Below, piece after piece: positions 32,055 to 39,159 of a stretch of 39,159 nucleotides of DNA; the stretch's first letter is position 1, and every line of letters starts with the position of its first letter. The stretch is from an uncultured Gammaproteobacteria bacterium (GTDB lineage Bacteria > Pseudomonadota > Gammaproteobacteria > Magnimaribacterales > D2472): the NCBI GenBank assembly GCA_913050015.1, contig CAJXAZ010000003.1, positions 1 through 39,159 on the forward strand. The letters run 5' to 3'. A model generated the notes under the pieces. The model had not been told where the DNA came from. It saw nothing but the letters and a program-made list of their open reading frames with translations, and searched no databases. A program made the translations under genes and the position numbers.

Positions 32055-33338
32055 CTACTTTTGCTTCTTGAGTCTTTCTTCAAGCGCTCCTAGATTCAAA
32101 TTACCTGGAGATCCTTCTGAATAATTCATTGTTTCAGAGCTATCAAGTAAAGATATATCAGAAGTATTCTTTACCGTATTATAGGCATCTCTAAAAGGCG
32201 TTCCCTTAGCAACAAGTGCATAAACCTTATCTGTCATCTTCATCTCCTCATCAATAAAGCTATTAGACCTATCTTTGTTAACCTTTATCGTTTTAATAAG
32301 ATCAGGGACTATATTGAGACTTTTTTGACATATTTCAAAACTTGAAACTAGACTTCTCTTCGTAAGCTGCAAGTCTCTATGGTAACCACTTGGCAGAGAG
32401 AGAAGATTCTCAAGCTCAGCAGCCTGACCTGCAAGAATAGAATAATTTGCTCTTAAAATTTCAACTACGTCCGGGTTGTTTTTGTTTGGCATAATTGATG
32501 AGCCTGTTAAATATTTACTATCAATATTTAACAAATCAAATTCTTGAGATAAAAATAAACTCATATCCCATGAAAATTTTCTTATATCAAGCATTGACTG
32601 CTTGAGGGTGCTTAAGATTTGCATTTCATATTTTCCCCTACTGTTTTGAACGTAAAGGCTATTTAATTGAATTCTTTTAAATCCTAAATCTCTAGTTACC
32701 TTTTTTCTATTAAGGGGTAATCCAACTCCATAACCAGCTGCACCCCCCAGTGGGTTTGAGTCAATCCAGTTAATAGTACTTTCAATTAAATCAACGTTAT
32801 CAATAAATGATTCTGCGTAAGATGAAAACCATAGACCCCATGAGGAAGGCATTGCTCTTTGAAGATGCGTATAGCCAGGCATTGGAATATTTTCATATTT
32901 TTTAGCTGAAGATAAAAAAGTTCTAGCAATCTTTTTATTAATTTTCTTAAAATCAACTAAATTTGCTTTTGCATAAAGTCTCATAGCAACCATTACTTGA
33001 TCATTTCTACTTCTGCCGGTGTGAACTTTTTTTCCAAGATCGCCTAATTCTTTAGTTAAAAAGAACTCAATAGCAGAATGACAATCTTCATACTTATTAG
33101 TTAATTTGAAGGAGCCTTTAATAAACCTTTCTTTTAAATCTTTTAACGACTTCTCTAGTTTATTAAGTTCAGATTTTGTGAGAATGCCTATCGACATGAG
33201 AGATTTGATATGGGCGGATGTTGCATCAATATCAAAAATAAATATTGCTTTATCAAGCTCTATATCTTCGCCAGCTAAGAATGAATTTATCTCATCAGAT
33301 GAATTGCTATCACCTATATTCCATAGTTTTTTAGTCAT
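32055..33338 (-). CDS. argH: Argininosuccinate lyase
   Basis: HTGRSRNDQ, PGYTHLQRA, GSSIMPNK.NPD, GYHRDLQ. Confidence 0.96.
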   Translation of the reverse strand: MTKKLWNIGDSNSSDEINSFLAGEDIELDKAIFIFDIDATSAHIKSLMSIGILTKSELNKLEKSLKDLKERFIKGSFKLTNKYEDCHSAIEFFLTKELGDLGKKVHTGRSRNDQVMVAMRLYAKANLVDFKKINKKIARTFLSSAKKYENIPMPGYTHLQRAMPSSWGLWFSSYAESFIDNVDLIESTINWIDSNPLGGAAGYGVGLPLNRKKVTRDLGFKRIQLNSLYVQNSRGKYEMQILSTLKQSMLDIRKFSWDMSLFLSQEFDLLNIDSKYLTGSSIMPNKNNPDVVEILRANYSILAGQAAELENLLSLPSGYHRDLQLTKRSLVSSFEICQKSLNIVPDLIKTIKVNKDRSNSFIDEEMKMTDKVYALVAKGTPFRDAYNTVKNTSDISLLDSSETMNYSEGSPGNLNLGALEERLKKQK

Positions 33339-34269
33339 TATTTATTCCTGTTAATTCCTCTAAGCCACATGAAGAATTTAAGTTTTGTATTGCTTGAGTA
33401 GCAGCACCTTTTAATAAGTTATCGATGACACAGCAAATAGTTATATTGTAGCCACTGTTATCCAGAGAGAAACCACCAATAAGAGCAGAATGCGTATTAA
33501 TTACTTTATTTATCATTGGTATATCTTTTTGAATTTTTACCAAAGGCTTGTTCTTATAGTAATCACTAAATACCCTATAAATCTCTAATTCATCTGAAGA
33601 GTTTTTCAGCTTAATATGGGATGTTATTAATATTCCTCTAAAAAAATTACCAACATGAGGACTGAATGATAAATTCTCATAGCAATGTCTCTGAACTTCA
33701 CTTTCATGAATATGATTAGATAGAGAATAAGGAATAATATTATTCTTAAGATTCTCTGGGCTATTTTTATCATTTGGTGATGCTCCAGCCCCGCTATAGC
33801 CTGATATACCCATGCAACTGACAGAACCATCAATAAGATCTACTAAGGGACTTATTGAAAGCTGCATTGCGGTGGCATAACAACCTGGGTTACTTATTCT
33901 ATTAGTCGCTTTTTCACTGGCGATCTCGGGCAGTCTATATTGCCAATCTTTATCAAATCTATAATCAGAGCTCAAGTCAATTAACGTTATGTCTGAATAA
34001 TTTTGATTAATAATATCAAGATATCTAAAAGATTCATTATTTGGGAGAGCCATTATGACAATATCCACTTCTTCAAGATTAATGTCTGAAACTTCAAGGA
34101 AAGAATAACTTAAATTAGATTTTTTATATTCATTTACTGGATCCCCAGCTGATGATTTTGAAAAAATTTTAACTAGATCAAAACATGGATGATCGTTAAG
34201 GATTTGGATTATTTCTTGGCCAACATAACCTCTTCCTCCGATCATAGCGATATTGAATTTATTTTTCAT
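33331..34269 (-). CDS. argC: N-acetyl-gamma-glutamyl-phosphate reductase
   Basis: GGRGYVG, DLSSDYR, NPGCYAT, SGYSGAG, DNLLKGAATQA. Start likely ATG 34269 (MKNKFN). Confidence 0.95.
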   Translation of the reverse strand: MKNKFNIAMIGGRGYVGQEIIQILNDHPCFDLVKIFSKSSAGDPVNEYKKSNLSYSFLEVSDINLEEVDIVIMALPNNESFRYLDIINQNYSDITLIDLSSDYRFDKDWQYRLPEIASEKATNRISNPGCYATAMQLSISPLVDLIDGSVSCMGISGYSGAGASPNDKNSPENLKNNIIPYSLSNHIHESEVQRHCYENLSFSPHVGNFFRGILITSHIKLKNSSDELEIYRVFSDYYKNKPLVKIQKDIPMINKVINTHSALIGGFSLDNSGYNITICCVIDNLLKGAATQAIQNLNSSCGLEELTGINND

Positions 34270-35569
34270 ATGTAATTGTTGCCGGCTGATTTGATGCATA
34301 GTTTATGCACGCTGTTAATTCATTTGTATCAGTAATTCCAACCCAAAAAATATTCCAATCCTCGTTTCTTTGGAATCCATCGCAGACATCTTTGTAGAAA
34401 TTATTTATAGAGTTTTTAGATCTTGATCTCCAAAATATTTTAGTATGATTTGATGTCATCTTATTCCACATGGCATTTCCCAAACCTTCGCCTCTAGCAG
34501 AGCTAATTACAGCAAATTTATCCATATAAGCTATATCGTGTTGATAAGACATTACTATTGCCGCTCTATTGCATGAGCTTACATAGAAATCTTTATTGCC
34601 AGTTGTAAAATATTCCTCAACCAAATCACCTCTGAAAGAGCTCTCAAGTATGTGAGTAAGATTATTAATGCCATCATCATCAAGAGTGTTTGAATGAGTA
34701 ATTTTATGACCTGCCTTAACTAAAGTTCCATAACCAGCATCAGTAAATAACTCTCTATTTAGATGCAATGGCTTAGTTATAGAGACAGAACTATTATTTG
34801 GTAATGATTCTAAAAGTAGCTTGATTTGTTGAAGTTTTAACTTCATTCCAGAATGAAGCCATTCCTGAGCCATAAGTCTCTCATAGTCATCTTTTATATT
34901 AATTGTAGAAATTAAATTGTTGTTTGCATCTAATATGCCACCAACATCACTTAAGAAAATTACCTTATCAGGAGATATTTCACTAGCCAAAGCCAAAGTA
35001 GCTTTGTCGGCATTAATATTAACTATTTGACCATCTGAAGTTTTGCCAACAGGAGCAATAACAGGAACTCCATTATTTAGAATAATATCTTTTATTTTAT
35101 CTGAAAATGTTTTAACCACCTCTCCAACATATCCAAGAGATTCATTTTTAACACTGCATTCAAAAATTTCACCAACCAAGGAGACTGCTTGGACTCCCTC
35201 CTCTTGCAATGCATCTGTAAGTCTTAAATTTTCCCTAGTGAATATTGAAACTGCTACATCTAAAACCTCTTTAGTCGTAACTCTTTGACCATCTACAAAG
35301 GAGAATTTAATATCCTGCTTCTCTAGTTCCTCTGAAAGTATTGGACCTGCGCCATGAACAATGATTGGCCTTAAACCTACTTCGTTAAGAAAGGCTAAAG
35401 AAGATACAAGGTTTTCTAGATCGCTCTGTATAACTGCTCCACCAACTTTTATTACAGCAAACCTATATTCGTCAGAAGAGAATCTTTCTAAATATTTTCT
35501 TATCTCCTTCTCACTACTCATCCCGCTTAGAAGCTTAAGAATAGTATTTTTGGTAAAACTTTTATTCAT
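34259..35569 (-). CDS. argB: Acetylglutamate kinase with C-terminal NAT (DUF619) domain; bifunctional NAGS/K type
   Basis: AAK domain VIKVGG, HGAGP, NINAD, ELFT..GYGT; NAT domain YMDKFAV...GEGLG..W and FWRSR..N..N.FY. Confidence 0.92.
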   Translation of the reverse strand: MNKSFTKNTILKLLSGMSSEKEIRKYLERFSSDEYRFAVIKVGGAVIQSDLENLVSSLAFLNEVGLRPIIVHGAGPILSEELEKQDIKFSFVDGQRVTTKEVLDVAVSIFTRENLRLTDALQEEGVQAVSLVGEIFECSVKNESLGYVGEVVKTFSDKIKDIILNNGVPVIAPVGKTSDGQIVNINADKATLALASEISPDKVIFLSDVGGILDANNNLISTINIKDDYERLMAQEWLHSGMKLKLQQIKLLLESLPNNSSVSITKPLHLNRELFTDAGYGTLVKAGHKITHSNTLDDDGINNLTHILESSFRGDLVEEYFTTGNKDFYVSSCNRAAIVMSYQHDIAYMDKFAVISSARGEGLGNAMWNKMTSNHTKIFWRSRSKNSINNFYKDVCDGFQRNEDWNIFWVGITDTNELTACINYASNQPATITYEK

Positions 35570-35573
35570 TTTA

Positions 35574-36761
35574 TTATTTATTAATATCAGTCCAGGTAGC
35601 AGTACTTTGGCCTAAGAGCTTAATAAAGCCAGTAGACTCCTCTACTCCCCATGATGCAGATTGAGCATATATAGCCTCTTTACTAACAAGTATTTTCTTA
35701 GCTTCTACTTCGACCGCTTCTGCCTTTCCGCCGGATAATAATATAGTTACCTTGCCGTTAACTGGTTGCTGGATATCTTCCAAAAAGTTTTCTAAATTCC
35801 TTGTGAGAGGATCAAAGTAAAAGCCTCCATAAACAAGCTCAACCCATTTTTTACCCACTATAGGTTTAAAGAAGTTTTGTTTATCTGTAAAAATAGCCTC
35901 TTCAAGAGCTCTGTGAGCTCTTTGAAGAATTGTTATTCCAGGAGCTTCAAACAAAAACCTACCTTTGATACCAATAATCGTATCACTTGCAAATATCTCT
36001 CTTCCAATACCATATTTACCGCCCAGTGAATTCAATGTTCTAAGAATTTCTGGCCCATTAATTAACTTACCATTAAGTTTTTTTGCCTCACCTTTCTTGA
36101 ATTCAATAGTAATCTTTTTAGTATTTTGAGGGTACTTATCTGGTGTATTGCAAAGAATATAACTGTCAGACGAAGGCTCTTTCCACTCATCAATTTCTGA
36201 GCCAGAAACGGTTGCTCCCATTAGGTTTTCATTAACACTATATGTTGAATGCAGAGAGGAGACTTTAAAGCCTCTATCTTGAAGATATTCTTTTTCATAA
36301 CCCCTAACATCAGAGACTTTATTTTGAATTTCTCTAATAGGAGTAACAGTTTTATATTTTCCAAAAGCCTGAATAGATAAATCAAACCTGACCTGATCAT
36401 TACCCATTCCAGTGCATCCATGAGAGATATACTTTGTATTTAATTTTTTACATAACTTAATCGCCTCTTTTACAATTAAGTACCTGTCTGAACAAAGAGC
36501 TGGATACTTGTCTTGATACAAGGCTCCTGACCAGACTAATGGCTTAATGATCTCTTTCCATAAAGAGGAATCTATATTTACATTAATATGCTTCTTCGCG
36601 CCTAGCTCATTAGCTCTATTAGTAATCTTATCCTCCTCCTTCTTAGATGTTCCGCCAGTATTTACAAATATTGTATGAACTTCAAAGCCCTGCTCCATAA
36701 GATAAGGTACACAAAAACTTGTATCTAACCCTCCAGAAAATGCTAAAACAATTTTTTTCAT
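35574..36761 (-). CDS. argG: Argininosuccinate synthase
   Basis: LAFSGGLDTS, HGCTGMGNDQVRF, FEAPG. Confidence 0.97.
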   Translation of the reverse strand: MKKIVLAFSGGLDTSFCVPYLMEQGFEVHTIFVNTGGTSKKEEDKITNRANELGAKKHINVNIDSSLWKEIIKPLVWSGALYQDKYPALCSDRYLIVKEAIKLCKKLNTKYISHGCTGMGNDQVRFDLSIQAFGKYKTVTPIREIQNKVSDVRGYEKEYLQDRGFKVSSLHSTYSVNENLMGATVSGSEIDEWKEPSSDSYILCNTPDKYPQNTKKITIEFKKGEAKKLNGKLINGPEILRTLNSLGGKYGIGREIFASDTIIGIKGRFLFEAPGITILQRAHRALEEAIFTDKQNFFKPIVGKKWVELVYGGFYFDPLTRNLENFLEDIQQPVNGKVTILLSGGKAEAVEVEAKKILVSKEAIYAQSASWGVEESTGFIKLLGQSTATWTDINK

Positions 36762-36762
36762 T

Positions 36763-37764
36763 TTATTTATCCTTTAATAATGTAGTTAATAATGATTTCT
36801 GAACATGCATTCTATTTCCAGCCTCTTGAACTGCGACACAATACTTAGAATCCATGACGGCGTCAGTAGCTTTTATATTTCTTCTTAGTGGCAGGCAATG
36901 ACTGAATATTGCGTTATCAGTCATAGACATTTTATTTTCATCAACTATGAAATGTTTATACTGGTCTCTAATTAGTTTCTCTGGCTCTGGATTTCCATAG
37001 TAATTAAGTGATCCCCAACTTTTTGCATAAACGACATGCGCGTCTGAATAGCCCTCCTCAATATCATGAGTAATTGTGAAAGAGGTTCCATTTGCTTTGC
37101 AGTTAGATTCTGCCTGAGAGGTATAGTTGCTATGCAGAATATAGTCATCTGATGGGCATAATAATTTTACATTCATTCCAAATTTACTAGCTATCATCAA
37201 TGAAGAGTTTGCTACTGCTGTGTTTAGTGGCTTTGGATGATATGTCCAAGTTAGTAAGTAATCTTTGCCTGAGAGGTCTCCTAATTGCTCCTGAAGAGTT
37301 AGTATGTGAGCTAGTTCTTGGCACGGATGGGTTATTGTCTCCATATTAACCACTGGTACAGAGGCATATTTTGAAAAGCTATTAATTACATTGTCTGATA
37401 AGTCTTCATCAAGGTTTGTAAATTTAGGAAACGCTCTAACTGCTATAAGATCACAGTACTCTGACAAGACTCCAGCTACTTCAATAATATGCTCTTCTGA
37501 CTCTGAATCCATTACAGAGTTTAATTTAAACTCTATTGGCCAGGCATCTTTGCCTGGATGAAGGACTACAGCATAACCACCTAACTCCTGAATACCAATT
37601 TCAAAACTAGTTCTAGTTCTCATTGATGGATTAAAGAATAGTAAAGCAACAGACTTATTCTTCAGTGTTTCCTGAAACTTATTGTCTTTTAGATCTTTGG
37701 CATAATCCAAGATATCTTGTAATTCGTCCTTAGACCAATCTGATGTAGAGATAAAATTTTTCAT
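36763..37764 (-). CDS. argF': N-acetylornithine carbamoyltransferase (ArgF', Xanthomonas type)
   Basis: FFNPSMRTR, DAWPIEF, EEH, TWTYHPKPLNTAVANS, HCLPLRRNIKATDAVMDS. Start ATG 37764. Confidence 0.92.
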   Translation of the reverse strand: MKNFISTSDWSKDELQDILDYAKDLKDNKFQETLKNKSVALLFFNPSMRTRTSFEIGIQELGGYAVVLHPGKDAWPIEFKLNSVMDSESEEHIIEVAGVLSEYCDLIAVRAFPKFTNLDEDLSDNVINSFSKYASVPVVNMETITHPCQELAHILTLQEQLGDLSGKDYLLTWTYHPKPLNTAVANSSLMIASKFGMNVKLLCPSDDYILHSNYTSQAESNCKANGTSFTITHDIEEGYSDAHVVYAKSWGSLNYYGNPEPEKLIRDQYKHFIVDENKMSMTDNAIFSHCLPLRRNIKATDAVMDSKYCVAVQEAGNRMHVQKSLLTTLLKDK

Positions 37765-37780
37765 AATTAATATTTTTAGC

Positions 37781-37807
37781 AAAAAAAAACCCAGCATATG
37801 GCTGGGT
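37781..37807 (-). terminator. Attenuator terminator hairpin upstream of argF'
   Basis: Minus strand ACCCAGC-CATAT-GCTGGGT running into a U9 tract, 16 nt before the argF' ATG and downstream of the operon promoter. Confidence 0.88.
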
Positions 37808-37833
37808 CTAATTTACAAGTAGACAGACCCAGC
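37801..37833 (-). promoter_or_regulatory. Antiterminator hairpin of the arg leader
   Basis: GCTGGGTCT (37833-37825) is perfectly complementary to AGACCCAGC (37809-37801), which contains the 5' arm of the terminator. Confidence 0.8.
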
Positions 37834-37883
37834 TATTTTGGTGGCACCCGTCTTTCTTGTATTTTTAAGTTGTTCATTTCCAT
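37833..37883 (-). CDS. Putative arg operon leader peptide MEMNNLKIQERRVPPK (or 14 aa from ATG 37877)
   Basis: ATG GAA ATG AAC AAC TTA AAA ATA CAA GAA AGA CGG GTG CCA CCA AAA TAG. Tandem Arg codons; the stop overlaps the antiterminator 5' arm. Confidence 0.72.
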   Translation of the reverse strand: MEMNNLKIQERRVPPK

Positions 37884-37886
37884 CTA

Positions 37887-37914
37887 AGTATATATAGAAT
37901 ATTGATTTTGTAAA
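37887..37914 (-). promoter_or_regulatory. Sigma70-type promoter of the arg leader/operon
   Basis: TTTACA (37914-37909) - 16 nt - TATACT (37892-37887). Confidence 0.6.
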
Positions 37915-38018
37915 CTTTAATACGAGCGATATTCCGCTTGAAACTTCGCTTTTAAGTACTAAATATTAAGTTTTTGACTGATAAGAATACTTTACCCATA
38001 AGGTTTAAACATTCAAAT

Positions 38019-38103
38019 TGGTAGGGATGGAGGGGATCGAACCCCCACGCCTTGCGGCACTAGGTTCTAAACCTAGCGTGTCTACCAGTTCCACCACATC
38101 CCC
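38019..38103 (-). tRNA. tRNA-Leu(UAG)
   Basis: GGGGATGTGGTGGAACTGGTAGACACGCTAGGTTTAGAACCTAGTGCCGCAAGGCGTGGGGGTTCGATCCCCTCCATCCCTACCA; long variable arm, anticodon TAG. Confidence 0.95.
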
Positions 38104-38152
38104 AGAGAAATGAATTATATAGATTAATACTTATGAAAGGAAAGATTAAATT

Positions 38153-38542
38153 TTATAAATCGTAAGAAATTTGATTCTTTCTACTTTTTTGAATTGCGTA
38201 TAGAGAAATACAAAGAGCAAAACCAATGAAAAATGATGTTACAGAGTAGTTGGTAAAGCCTTCATAAATAAAACCAAATACTTTTGCGATCATCATTGTT
38301 GACATGATGTAAAGCAAAATAGTTCCTATCTGGACTTTTGACGAAGAATATACAAACCTCACAGTTAGGTATCCACAGCACATAATAAATCCAGCATATG
38401 TTCTAACTAAAATTGATTGGTCAGCACCCTCTACAATAAAAGGAATGAAGATATTATTAACATTCGGTCCAAAAACAGTAACTGCACCAATTACCAAAAG
38501 GAATAAGCCAGCAGAAACTAAAAATATTCTAAAAATAATCAT
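38153..38542 (-). CDS. Hypothetical four-TM membrane protein
   Basis: Hydrophobic ORF. Start likely ATG 38542, in an ATGA overlap with the upstream stop. Confidence 0.6.
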   Translation of the reverse strand: MIIFRIFLVSAGLFLLVIGAVTVFGPNVNNIFIPFIVEGADQSILVRTYAGFIMCCGYLTVRFVYSSSKVQIGTILLYIMSTMMIAKVFGFIYEGFTNYSVTSFFIGFALCISLYAIQKSRKNQISYDL

Positions 38543-38751
38543 AGAACTCCAAGCATATAAAGAGCTATAAGAAATGAAACACCCCCAACACCCATCCAAA
38601 TATACATTTCTTTATAATTTTTGAATTTATAGGAGTTAATTGCAAGGAAACAGCAAAATATTGGAGCAACTACCAAAACTCCATAACCAACTAATATTGC
38701 CAAAGGTATAAATGCTAATAGTAAAAAAGCTTGTAAAAACCACTTATTCAT
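38539..38751 (-). CDS. Small hypothetical membrane protein
   Basis: 70 aa hydrophobic ORF from ATG 38751, translationally coupled to the next gene. Confidence 0.55.
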   Translation of the reverse strand: MNKWFLQAFLLLAFIPLAILVGYGVLVVAPIFCCFLAINSYKFKNYKEMYIWMGVGGVSFLIALYMLGVL

Positions 38752-38788
38752 AGAGTAATAAGACAACTATTTGAATATATTGTCAATT

Positions 38789-39142
38789 CTATTCTAGCTC
38801 AATCTGTAAATTATCATTGTTCATGGATGAAATCTGAGTTTGAATCTCTCCAATTGTTTGATTTAGTTGTTTTTTATAATTATTAAGAGCTTGGACAGAA
38901 TCATCTATTAGCATAAGTTGGGTTTCTAGTGACTTTATAGTTCTTTGTATATCTTCCATCTCTTGACTGCCCTGAGAAATTTCTATTATTTGTAATTCAT
39001 TGCTCCTAATAGCTTGTTTATTAGATTTAATATTATTTAAAGATGATTGTGAGGTTATATTTAATTCTTTTGAGGCTTTTTCTAATTCCAATATTGCTCT
39101 GCTGAGTTTGGCAATATTTACCTTATTCTTCTTATTACTCAA
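38789..39142 (-). CDS. Hypothetical coiled-coil protein
   Basis: 117 aa, heptad-like Q/N/E/K/I/L-rich. TTG start with GGGA upstream; start uncertain near the window edge. Confidence 0.5.
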   Translation of the reverse strand: MSNKKNKVNIAKLSRAILELEKASKELNITSQSSLNNIKSNKQAIRSNELQIIEISQGSQEMEDIQRTIKSLETQLMLIDDSVQALNNYKKQLNQTIGEIQTQISSMNNDNLQIELE

Positions 39143-39159
39143 ATCCCAAAGCTTTCTAA

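Follow-up and report, generated by a model that had tools for sequence, protein, structure and literature searches.

How does a bacterium with no detectable ArgR protein adjust the synthesis of arginine to its supply? The question is raised by a short region in a stretch of 39,159 nucleotides (nt), here called the window, which comprises positions 1 to 39,159 of contig CAJXAZ010000003.1 from an uncultured gammaproteobacterium (assembly GCA_913050015.1; 879,687 bases in 63 contigs, 78.9% complete, 35% G+C). The named relatives of the ArgF' protein encoded in the window are SAR86-cluster bacteria. Directly ahead of argF', the first structural gene of an arginine operon, lie a promoter, a very short open reading frame (ORF) with two adjacent arginine codons, and a set of complementary arms that ends in a run of U. 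Leader-peptide attenuation is the textbook mode of control for the Trp, His, Leu, Thr, Phe, and Ilv operons, while arginine is the domain of ArgR.

We conclude, with a probability of roughly 0.85, that this element is a ribosome-mediated transcription attenuator of the trp/his type, which would sense charged tRNA-Arg and control argF'-argG-argB-argC-argH. The same reading had been put forward in a preliminary description made from the letters of the window alone, and the checks that were run support it and turned up nothing that refutes it. The analysis computed the anatomy of the element, its conservation, co-variation and alternative folds, the rarity of its codons, and the tRNA complement of a related genome, and it detected no ArgR; from these results we infer the transcription start, the translation of the ORF, ribosome stalling, and the response to arginine.

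A search for ArgR (Pfam PF01316), which the preliminary description had called for, gave no match in the window's own genome at its 78.9% completeness and none in 61 genomes of the same family, including the 26 that are at least 90% complete. A control search with the same profile matched 9 of 14 reference genomes.

Architecture and alternative folds of the leader

The putative attenuator and the arginine operon both lie on the minus strand, and all positions are given in the numbering of the whole window (Table 1). The core of the first arm, GCTGGGTCT (37833-37825), takes the G of the leader stop codon as its first base and begins 14 nt past the CGG codon. Its perfect complement, AGACCCAGC, follows at 37809-37801. 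GCUGGG or its complement is present three times in the leader, which makes the antiterminator and terminator hairpins mutually exclusive. From the end of the U-run it is 16 nt to the argF' ATG at 37764. For promoter, ORF, Arg codons, arms, and U-run, the positions in the preliminary description were correct base for base. The ORF that it had recognised does exist, with the difference that the conserved start is the second of two in-frame ATGs (37877), giving 14 codons.

The minimum-energy fold of the window leader (-29.7 kcal/mol, z = -2.58) combines the terminator with a second helix, in which UACAAG..AGACGGG within the ORF is paired with UCUGUCU..CUUGUA past the stop codon (37827-37814), a strand that the antiterminator arm of segment 2 overlaps. 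As modelled, the layout has four segments, with a 1:2 helix that covers the Arg codons, and this is the classical design. The competing hairpins described beforehand are thus present, but the proposed three-segment geometry lacked this additional helix between the ORF and the sequence past its stop.

Twenty-one SAR86 leaders were folded with a ribosome footprint masked, the size of the footprint being taken from general knowledge. The states expected of an attenuator appeared in every one of them. Folds with no ribosome contained the 1:2 hairpin and the terminator (21/21), those with the ribosome at the stop codon contained the terminator (21/21), and those with CGG in the A site and segment 4 not yet made contained the antiterminator (21/21).

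The proposed mechanism is as follows. Transcription would begin at, or a few bases from, the AUG of the 14-codon ORF. With no translating ribosome on the RNA, segment 1, including AGA-CGG, would pair with segment 2, leaving segments 3 and 4 to form the terminator. When Arg-tRNA is scarce, the ribosome would stall with CGG or AGA in its A site, melting the 1:2 helix and leaving exposed the arm GCUGGGUCU, which starts 17 nt past the C of CGG. This arm would pair with AGACCCAGC as soon as the latter is made, so that no terminator could form and RNA polymerase would enter argF'. When Arg-tRNA is ample, the ribosome would reach the UAG and cover the arm, which begins with the G of that codon; the 3:4 terminator would then end the transcript at U9.

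Table 1. Leader and operon features in the window (whole-stretch numbering).
Feature	Position	Strand	Basis or remark
-35 hexamer TTTACA	37909..37914	minus	sequence and consensus scan
-10 hexamer TATACT	37887..37892	minus	16-nt spacer from -35; sequence and consensus scan
Leader ORF MNNLKIQERRVPPK, 14 codons plus TAG	37833..37877	minus	sequence and frame conservation
Leader start ATG	37877	minus	conserved start; an extra in-frame ATG at 37883 is not conserved
Arg codons AGA (37853-37851) and CGG (37850-37848)	37848..37853	minus	codons 9-10; CGG is the conserved putative sensor codon
Leader stop TAG	37835-37833	minus	
Segment 1, UACAAG..AGACGGG	37847..37861	minus	5' strand of the 1:2 (anti-antiterminator) helix; holds the Arg codons; folding
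Segment 2	37814..37833	minus	antiterminator 5' arm GCUGGGUCUG at 37833-37824; folding
Segment 3, UAGACCCAGC	37801..37810	minus	shared strand; pairs with segment 2 (antiterminator) or segment 4 (terminator)
Segment 4, GCUGGG (37795-37790) and U9 (37789-37781)	37781..37795	minus	terminator 3' arm and U-tract
argF' (N-acetylornithine carbamoyltransferase)	36763..37764	minus	first structural gene; NCBIfam NF003384, 531.8 bits against a cut-off of 288
argG	35574-36761	minus	
argB, long form	34259-35569	minus	
argC	33331-34299	minus	
argH	32055-33338	minus	
tRNA-Leu(UAG)	38019-38103	minus	upstream of the leader, 105 nt from the -35 box

Since argG, argB, argC, and argH are tightly packed or overlapping, they are presumably co-transcribed. 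The locus is present in 22 marine metatranscriptome runs from 10 studies. In three of four runs (three studies), contigs run from argF' through the terminator and into the leader, part of which they cover (37199-37866, 36730-37867, and 37166-37824), which fits with co-transcription; RNA libraries may contain DNA, and contigs show neither ends nor amounts nor terminated leader RNA. No contig of the four runs covers 37868-37904, and those of two studies stop at 37866 and 37867. These stops would fit with a 5' end near 37877-37880, and are not counted as evidence.

Conservation in SAR86 and the proposed sensor codon

A consensus scan of positions 33000-39159 ranks the leader promoter first, with 10 of 12 matches, and lists the leader hairpin as a terminator of 9 pairs (5 of them G-C) with a 5-nt loop. 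Neither class of pattern is above chance in that scan: 28 promoter-like sites compare with 26.3 +/- 5.0 in shuffled sequence, and 3 terminator-like ones with 3.1 +/- 2.0. The case is therefore built on conservation in relatives.

ArgF' was sought in the 61 family genomes, from which 30 strong loci were retrieved, 29 of them with usable upstream sequence. Promoter, 14-codon ORF, arm, complement, and terminator are found together in 21 of the 29; the other eight all belong to one genus, g9. A covariance model built from these leaders was run on the window's own genome and on 151 genomes of the order, and added seven loci, for 28 matches in 28 sources. Within the own genome there is one strong site (96.1 bits), that at argF'; a 24.2-bit match is the same hairpin read on the opposite strand, and matches on two other contigs (C12 and C21) were set aside as plain terminators. 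Across the order, 88 of the 151 genomes matched at E ≤ 0.01, and all matches of at least 54 bits are confined to the window's own family (f1). The five lower-scoring matches outside this family that were inspected (L055, L057, L058, L059, and L063) are terminators with no leader ORF.

The ORF is conserved in its frame and length rather than in the peptide that it encodes. All 27 evaluated SAR86 loci have a 14-codon ORF with CGG at codon 10. The 28th, L052, has one or two additional N-terminal codons and still places CGG four codons before the stop, a spacing kept in 28/28 loci. Conservation of the leader ORF and of an Arg codon, which the preliminary description had named as a test of its reading, was thus observed. 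Apart from Arg, the peptide is not conserved, and sensing through the nascent peptide was dropped for that reason. Of the 28 leader loci, 20 have the -35 hexamer TTTACA and a 16-nt spacer, two have TTTCAA or TTTACT, and six, all in genus g5, have other hexamers.

It is extremely unlikely that the hairpin is simply the terminator of tRNA-Leu, or another unregulated terminator, with argF' expressed by read-through or from a promoter of its own and the ORF present by chance. Such a view could draw on the tRNA-Leu gene, which is located on the same strand 105 nt upstream of the -35 box, and on the chance-level frequency of terminator-like patterns. However, promoter, leader, and hairpins are retained in L003-L006 and L010-L014, where a divergent gene lies upstream, so the hairpin is not simply a tRNA-Leu terminator. 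Between the U-run and the argF' ATG of the window, 16 nt leave no space for a separate promoter. The ORF is open in 27/27 loci, with stops in the other two frames in 25/27 and 21/27, and in genus g5 the element precedes a different gene altogether.

CGG had been expected to be rare in so AT-rich a genome, and it proved to be the rarest sense codon of all, with 36 occurrences among 221,168 codons (560 ORFs of at least 200 amino acids). It makes up 0.4% of 8,177 Arg codons, of which AGA accounts for 72%. The customary reader of CGG in bacteria is a tRNA-Arg with anticodon CCG. In G029, a single-contig genome of the same genus, the 33 tRNA genes (L064-L095) include Arg anticodons CCT, TCG, ACG, and TCT, and no tRNA-Arg(CCG) was found in that set. 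Because tRNA-Arg(UCG) is present there without tRNA-Arg(CCG), CGG is presumably read only by wobble of the former. AGA precedes CGG in genera g1 to g4, and follows it or is missing in g8 and g5. CGG is the sole Arg codon in the leaders L021, L030, L049, L053, and L056. Judged by this alignment of codons, the conserved sensor is CGG and not the AGA-CGG pair; of the tandem codons originally proposed as the sensor, one is constant, and the pair is not.

A single rare codon also invites the reading that the attenuator is driven by translation but reports general translation capacity, or pausing at a rare codon, rather than arginine. CGG without any other Arg codon in the five leaders just named would suit this, and a codon that is both wobble-read and the rarest in the genome may be slow at any arginine level. 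On the other hand, slow decoding of CGG still depends on charged tRNA-Arg, the genes under control are those of arginine biosynthesis, and the wider family described below has runs of three to six Arg codons of several types. We consider this reading unlikely, and prefer the sensing of charged tRNA-Arg.

Translation of the leader probably starts without a Shine-Dalgarno sequence. The ATG follows the -10 box by 6-10 nt in all 28 SAR86 leader loci, which leaves no space for one, and the predicted transcription start (about 37880) is 0-5 nt ahead of the conserved ATG. The ORF is therefore probably leaderless.

The RNA helices differ in how they can be traced through SAR86. The 1:2 region is more stable than shuffles of its ORF part (mean z = -2.8 in 27 sequences, of which L019 and L023 do not clearly surpass their shuffles). 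Its outer helix has changes on both sides at three of six pairs; it is 82.5% paired, and its register shifts in g5 and g8. A column scan for helices missed it because of the register shifts between genera, and per-sequence folds and shuffles were used instead. The antiterminator has 9-10 perfect pairs in the window, and across SAR86 86% of its cells are paired. RNAalifold, applied to a MAFFT alignment of the SAR86 leaders, returned only the invariant 9-pair terminator.

The element beyond SAR86 and beyond the arginine operon

A wider scan of named genomes yielded 80 argF' loci, 79 of them with enough upstream sequence. In 65 of the 79 there is a terminator within 200 nt upstream of argF', and most of these loci also have an upstream ORF with at least three Arg codons among its last 16 residues. 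In Stenotrophomonas, Xanthomonas, Lysobacter, and Pseudoxanthomonas, the leaders end in GMTSRARRPEPHIFAG before the stop; the corresponding ends are QQRRRSRIMPAGNC in Kangiella, RRNRRRINTPGCEVL in Lysobacterales metagenome-assembled genomes (MAGs), and IRRVRRTHREQRAG in a Chromatiales MAG. Leaders outside SAR86 differ in sequence, with three to six Arg codons (CGT, CGC, CGA, and AGA) just upstream of the arm, and in these lineages the arm GCUGGG is itself translated, as Ala-Gly right before the stop. Arg runs are the sole coding feature common to all lineages. The element was not found at the argF' loci of SAR86 genus g9, of SAR92/Porticoccaceae, and of two MAGs.

Diversity of this kind allows the arms to be compared for compensatory change, another test named in the preliminary description, and its outcome is favourable. 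Among 30 diverse sequences the terminator is paired in 210/210 cells with four of seven pairs compensatory, and the antiterminator in 93.3% of cells with three of seven. For both hairpins, pairing is above that of shuffled and slid controls. Some base changes run through all three arms: GCTGGG/CCCAGC/GCTGGG occurs in 22 loci, GCCAGG/CCTGGT/GCCAGG in three, GCCGGG/CCCGGC/GCCGGG in one, and a mixed form compatible with G-U pairing in four. At the level of sequence, such co-variation is the signature of one strand that has two alternative pairing partners.

PF01316 was found in none of five genomes from Stenotrophomonas, Xanthomonas, Kangiella (two), and Lysobacter. As far as this profile can tell, the absence of ArgR accompanies the element, genomes of 4 Mb included. 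The preliminary description had suggested that the element may be a protein-free replacement for ArgR in a streamlined genome. The link to streamlining did not stand: homologous leaders occur in Kangiella and in 4-Mb Lysobacterales genomes that likewise have no detected ArgR, so streamlining is not the cause and the element is old.

Part of this family is already catalogued under another description. Rfam family RF02242, the Xanthomonadaceae small RNA (sRNA) Xoo5, matches the Stenotrophomonas leader with 113.9 bits (L149:1268-1391) and the Xanthomonas leader with 97.3 bits (L132:1247-1370), against a gathering score of 50. Both match regions coincide with the Arg-rich leader ORF and the antiterminator arm, and in Stenotrophomonas the match starts 2 nt before the leader ATG and stops 5 nt short of the terminator stem. 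Like the SAR86 element, Xoo5 is located directly upstream of argF' (in Stenotrophomonas and Xanthomonas), has an ORF ending in MTSRARRPEPHIFAG before the stop, and shares the arms GCUGGG, CCCAGC, and GCUGGG followed by a U-run. It differs in being filed as an sRNA gene and in its ORF of 33-53 codons with three CGN-type Arg codons. RF02242 gave no match to the SAR86 window at E up to 10, and none to Kangiella, Arenimonas, or the Chromatiales MAG at E up to 0.5, despite the shared architecture. By score the SAR86 element is thus outside RF02242, but it is alike in position, arms, and logic.

Xoo5 has been defined as a 124-nt RNA by rapid amplification of cDNA 5' ends (5' RACE) and cloning, and Northern blots showed bands near 130 and 100 nt (Liang 2011, PMC3039613); the main text of that paper never uses the words argF, arginine, or leader. 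For the Xcv homologue a start site has been given (Schmidtke 2012, PMC3300014), and in this source argF, arginine, leader peptide, and attenuat also occur 0 times. The region covered by RF02242 has the look of a leader that acts in cis, and not of an independent sRNA gene.

The element might instead be a trans-acting sRNA gene, as the catalogue has it, its proximity to argF', ORF, and Arg codons being incidental. Rfam files RF02242 as 'Gene; sRNA', and a discrete RNA of about 100-130 nt was seen on a Northern blot by Liang 2011 (PMC3039613); a terminated leader might in addition act in trans. Yet the element always stands directly before argF' or before the receptor gene that stands in for the arginine operon, with 14-32 nt left to the downstream ATG across SAR86. 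ORF length, frame, and CGG position are kept while the peptide varies, and Arg runs are all that the coding sequences of distant lineages share. Three-way co-variation of the arms is predicted by a switch and not by a plain sRNA terminator. An sRNA gene is accordingly a very unlikely account, and we retain that of a cis-acting attenuator.

In one SAR86 genus the leader is attached to another gene. Six of the covariance-model matches fall in g5, a genus without argF' and argG, where, in six of eight genomes (L049:1501-3094 in genome G004, L051-L054, and L056), a gene for a TonB-dependent receptor (plug domain) comes after the complete leader with its antiterminator and terminator. ArgG is found in 30 of the 61 family genomes, and in 0/8 of g5, 0/8 of g6, 0/8 of g7, and 0/3 of g10. 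The receptor subfamily is found in 22 of the 61 and never alongside ArgG, nine genomes having neither; related genomes are not independent observations in this count. Switches between ArgG and receptor also occur inside g1 (G005) and g8 (G008 and G032), and in G005 (L184) the receptor directly follows tRNA-Leu, in the place that the arginine operon has in the window. No Arg leader was found at the receptor genes of g6, g7, g10, G008, and G032. The receptor may import arginine or a related compound, and the leader ahead of it hints at what one of the many uncharacterised SAR86 receptors may do.

Taken in its broadest form, the proposal is of an old and unrecognised family of Arg-tRNA-sensing attenuators in Gammaproteobacteria that use the argF' pathway and have no ArgR: Lysobacterales/Xanthomonadaceae, where it has been mis-filed as Xoo5, Kangiellaceae, and SAR86. 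In SAR86 it would have shrunk to a leaderless 14-codon ORF, with possibly a single wobble-read CGG as its sensor, and it would have been rewired onto a TonB-dependent receptor in lineages without arginine genes. We put the odds of this broader proposal at slightly better than even. If it is true, Xoo5 becomes a cis-acting leader, and the rewiring marks the receptor as an importer of arginine or of an arginine-bearing compound.

Points of doubt and relation to known systems

Several observations weigh against the attenuator as proposed. The first group concerns the RNA. Once the full transcript exists, a ribosome at CGG leaves the antiterminator as the minimum-energy fold in just 5 of the 21 SAR86 leaders, so the switch must be kinetic, as it is in many attenuators. 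The sixth antiterminator pair is mismatched in 8 of 20 distinct SAR86 sequences, and the terminator core is invariant within SAR86, so that there is no co-variation there. In Xoo5, the cloned 3' end as it stands in the Rfam model is 5 nt before the terminator stem, and not past the U-run.

The second group concerns sensing and translation. The leader has only one or two Arg codons, and one of these, AGA, is the commonest Arg codon. The window's own assembly (79% complete) yielded no whole tRNA-Arg(UCG), and only the TCT and CCT species were seen in it; a search of this assembly with the tRNA-Arg(UCG) of G029 brought up only tRNA-Arg(UCU), 79% identical, and a fragment of 23 nt where a contig ends. 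Gammaproteobacterial leader peptides do not usually have a leaderless start without a Shine-Dalgarno sequence. The start site, the terminated leader RNA, translation of the ORF, and the effect of arginine are all predictions from DNA sequence, and the transcriptome runs were seen as contigs.

Lastly, the argF' loci of SAR86 genus g9 and of SAR92/Porticoccaceae have no such element. L110, L123, and L124, titled SAR92 or Porticoccaceae, have no Arg-rich leader and no terminator within 260 nt upstream of argF', and another mode of regulation must apply there.

A different and longer upstream ORF is seen in g9 (L020, L025, L027, L028, L111, and L121, including a record titled SAR86E; also L022, L024, L108, L109, and L117). 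It has 37-56 codons, ending in RRRRSI or KRRLRSI some 35 nt ahead of argF', and downstream of it is a small hairpin with a weak U-tract. In some genomes, a tail IPTQRIRSV is the C-terminus of an upstream panD-like ORF. The Arg-rich ORF of g9 was considered as a further leader and set aside, as it does not fit a terminator/antiterminator scheme.

In plan, the element resembles the classical leaders. In common with trpL, hisL, leuL, thrL, pheL, and ilvL of Proteobacteria, it has a short ORF with codons for the end product, helices 1:2, 2:3, and 3:4 plus U-run before the first gene, and a stop codon placed so that a ribosome there blocks segment 2. Its use of CGG is comparable to that of the CUA codons in leuL, which are rare and starvation-sensitive. 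Unlike these leaders, it would sense arginine, has one or two regulatory codons, and probably has a leaderless ORF. Leaderless Cys-rich upstream ORFs of mycobacteria, like the SAR86 leader, place codons for an end product ahead of biosynthetic genes; they differ in phylum and amino acid, and are not known to use a trp-type terminator/antiterminator.

ArgR with its ARG boxes and Arg T-boxes also exert feedback control on arginine biosynthesis genes. An Arg T-box, moreover, senses the charging of tRNA-Arg and acts through a terminator and antiterminator. The SAR86 element would do so through a translating ribosome, instead of through the ArgR protein or direct binding of tRNA to a T-box. According to Seliverstov 2005 (PMC1262725), arginine genes are under T-boxes in other species; that study detected no arg RNA element in Actinobacteria. 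Arginine is not mentioned in the main text of Naville and Gautheret 2010.

The nearest published case found is the leader of Salmonella speF, whose upstream ORF, orf34, contains two consecutive rare Arg codons, AGG-CGG. According to Ben-Zvi 2019 (PMC6386406), ribosome pausing at low arginine chooses there between alternative mRNA structures. Unlike the SAR86 leader, orf34 controls ornithine decarboxylase for polyamine synthesis, not arginine biosynthesis, and it relies on Rho-dependent termination, decay by RNase G, and exposure of the ribosome-binding site, with no pair of intrinsic terminator and antiterminator. No Arg-codon attenuator of an arginine biosynthesis operon was found in a literature search outside which lay supplements and subscription journals, where a prior description is possible. 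The broad family is apparently undescribed, and its SAR86 version apparently minimal, leaderless, and CGG-based.

If the attenuator is real, arginine joins the amino acids with leader-peptide attenuation, and the control of arginine synthesis without detectable ArgR is explained both in the abundant ocean SAR86 and in the Xanthomonas/Stenotrophomonas group. The SAR86 version would also show how small such a sensor can be, namely a leaderless ORF of 14 codons with a single very rare codon.

In an Rfam scan of the window, tRNA-Leu was the sole family to pass its threshold. There was no T-box match, and no amino-acid leader family reached its gathering score, the best being Leu_leader with 14.7 bits against 50. 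Sub-threshold matches (Betaproteobacteria toxic sRNA, AbsR28, PrrF, RyhB, and Leu_leader) are located on the terminator and were dismissed. A riboswitch was also considered and dropped, since there is no room for one and no conserved aptamer. Beyond the tRNA-Leu gene lie two further minus-strand ORFs, neither with an NCBIfam match at E ≤ 1e-5; that at 38153-38599 (148 amino acids) has a membrane-like look, and that at 38789-39142 (117 amino acids) a coiled-coil look.

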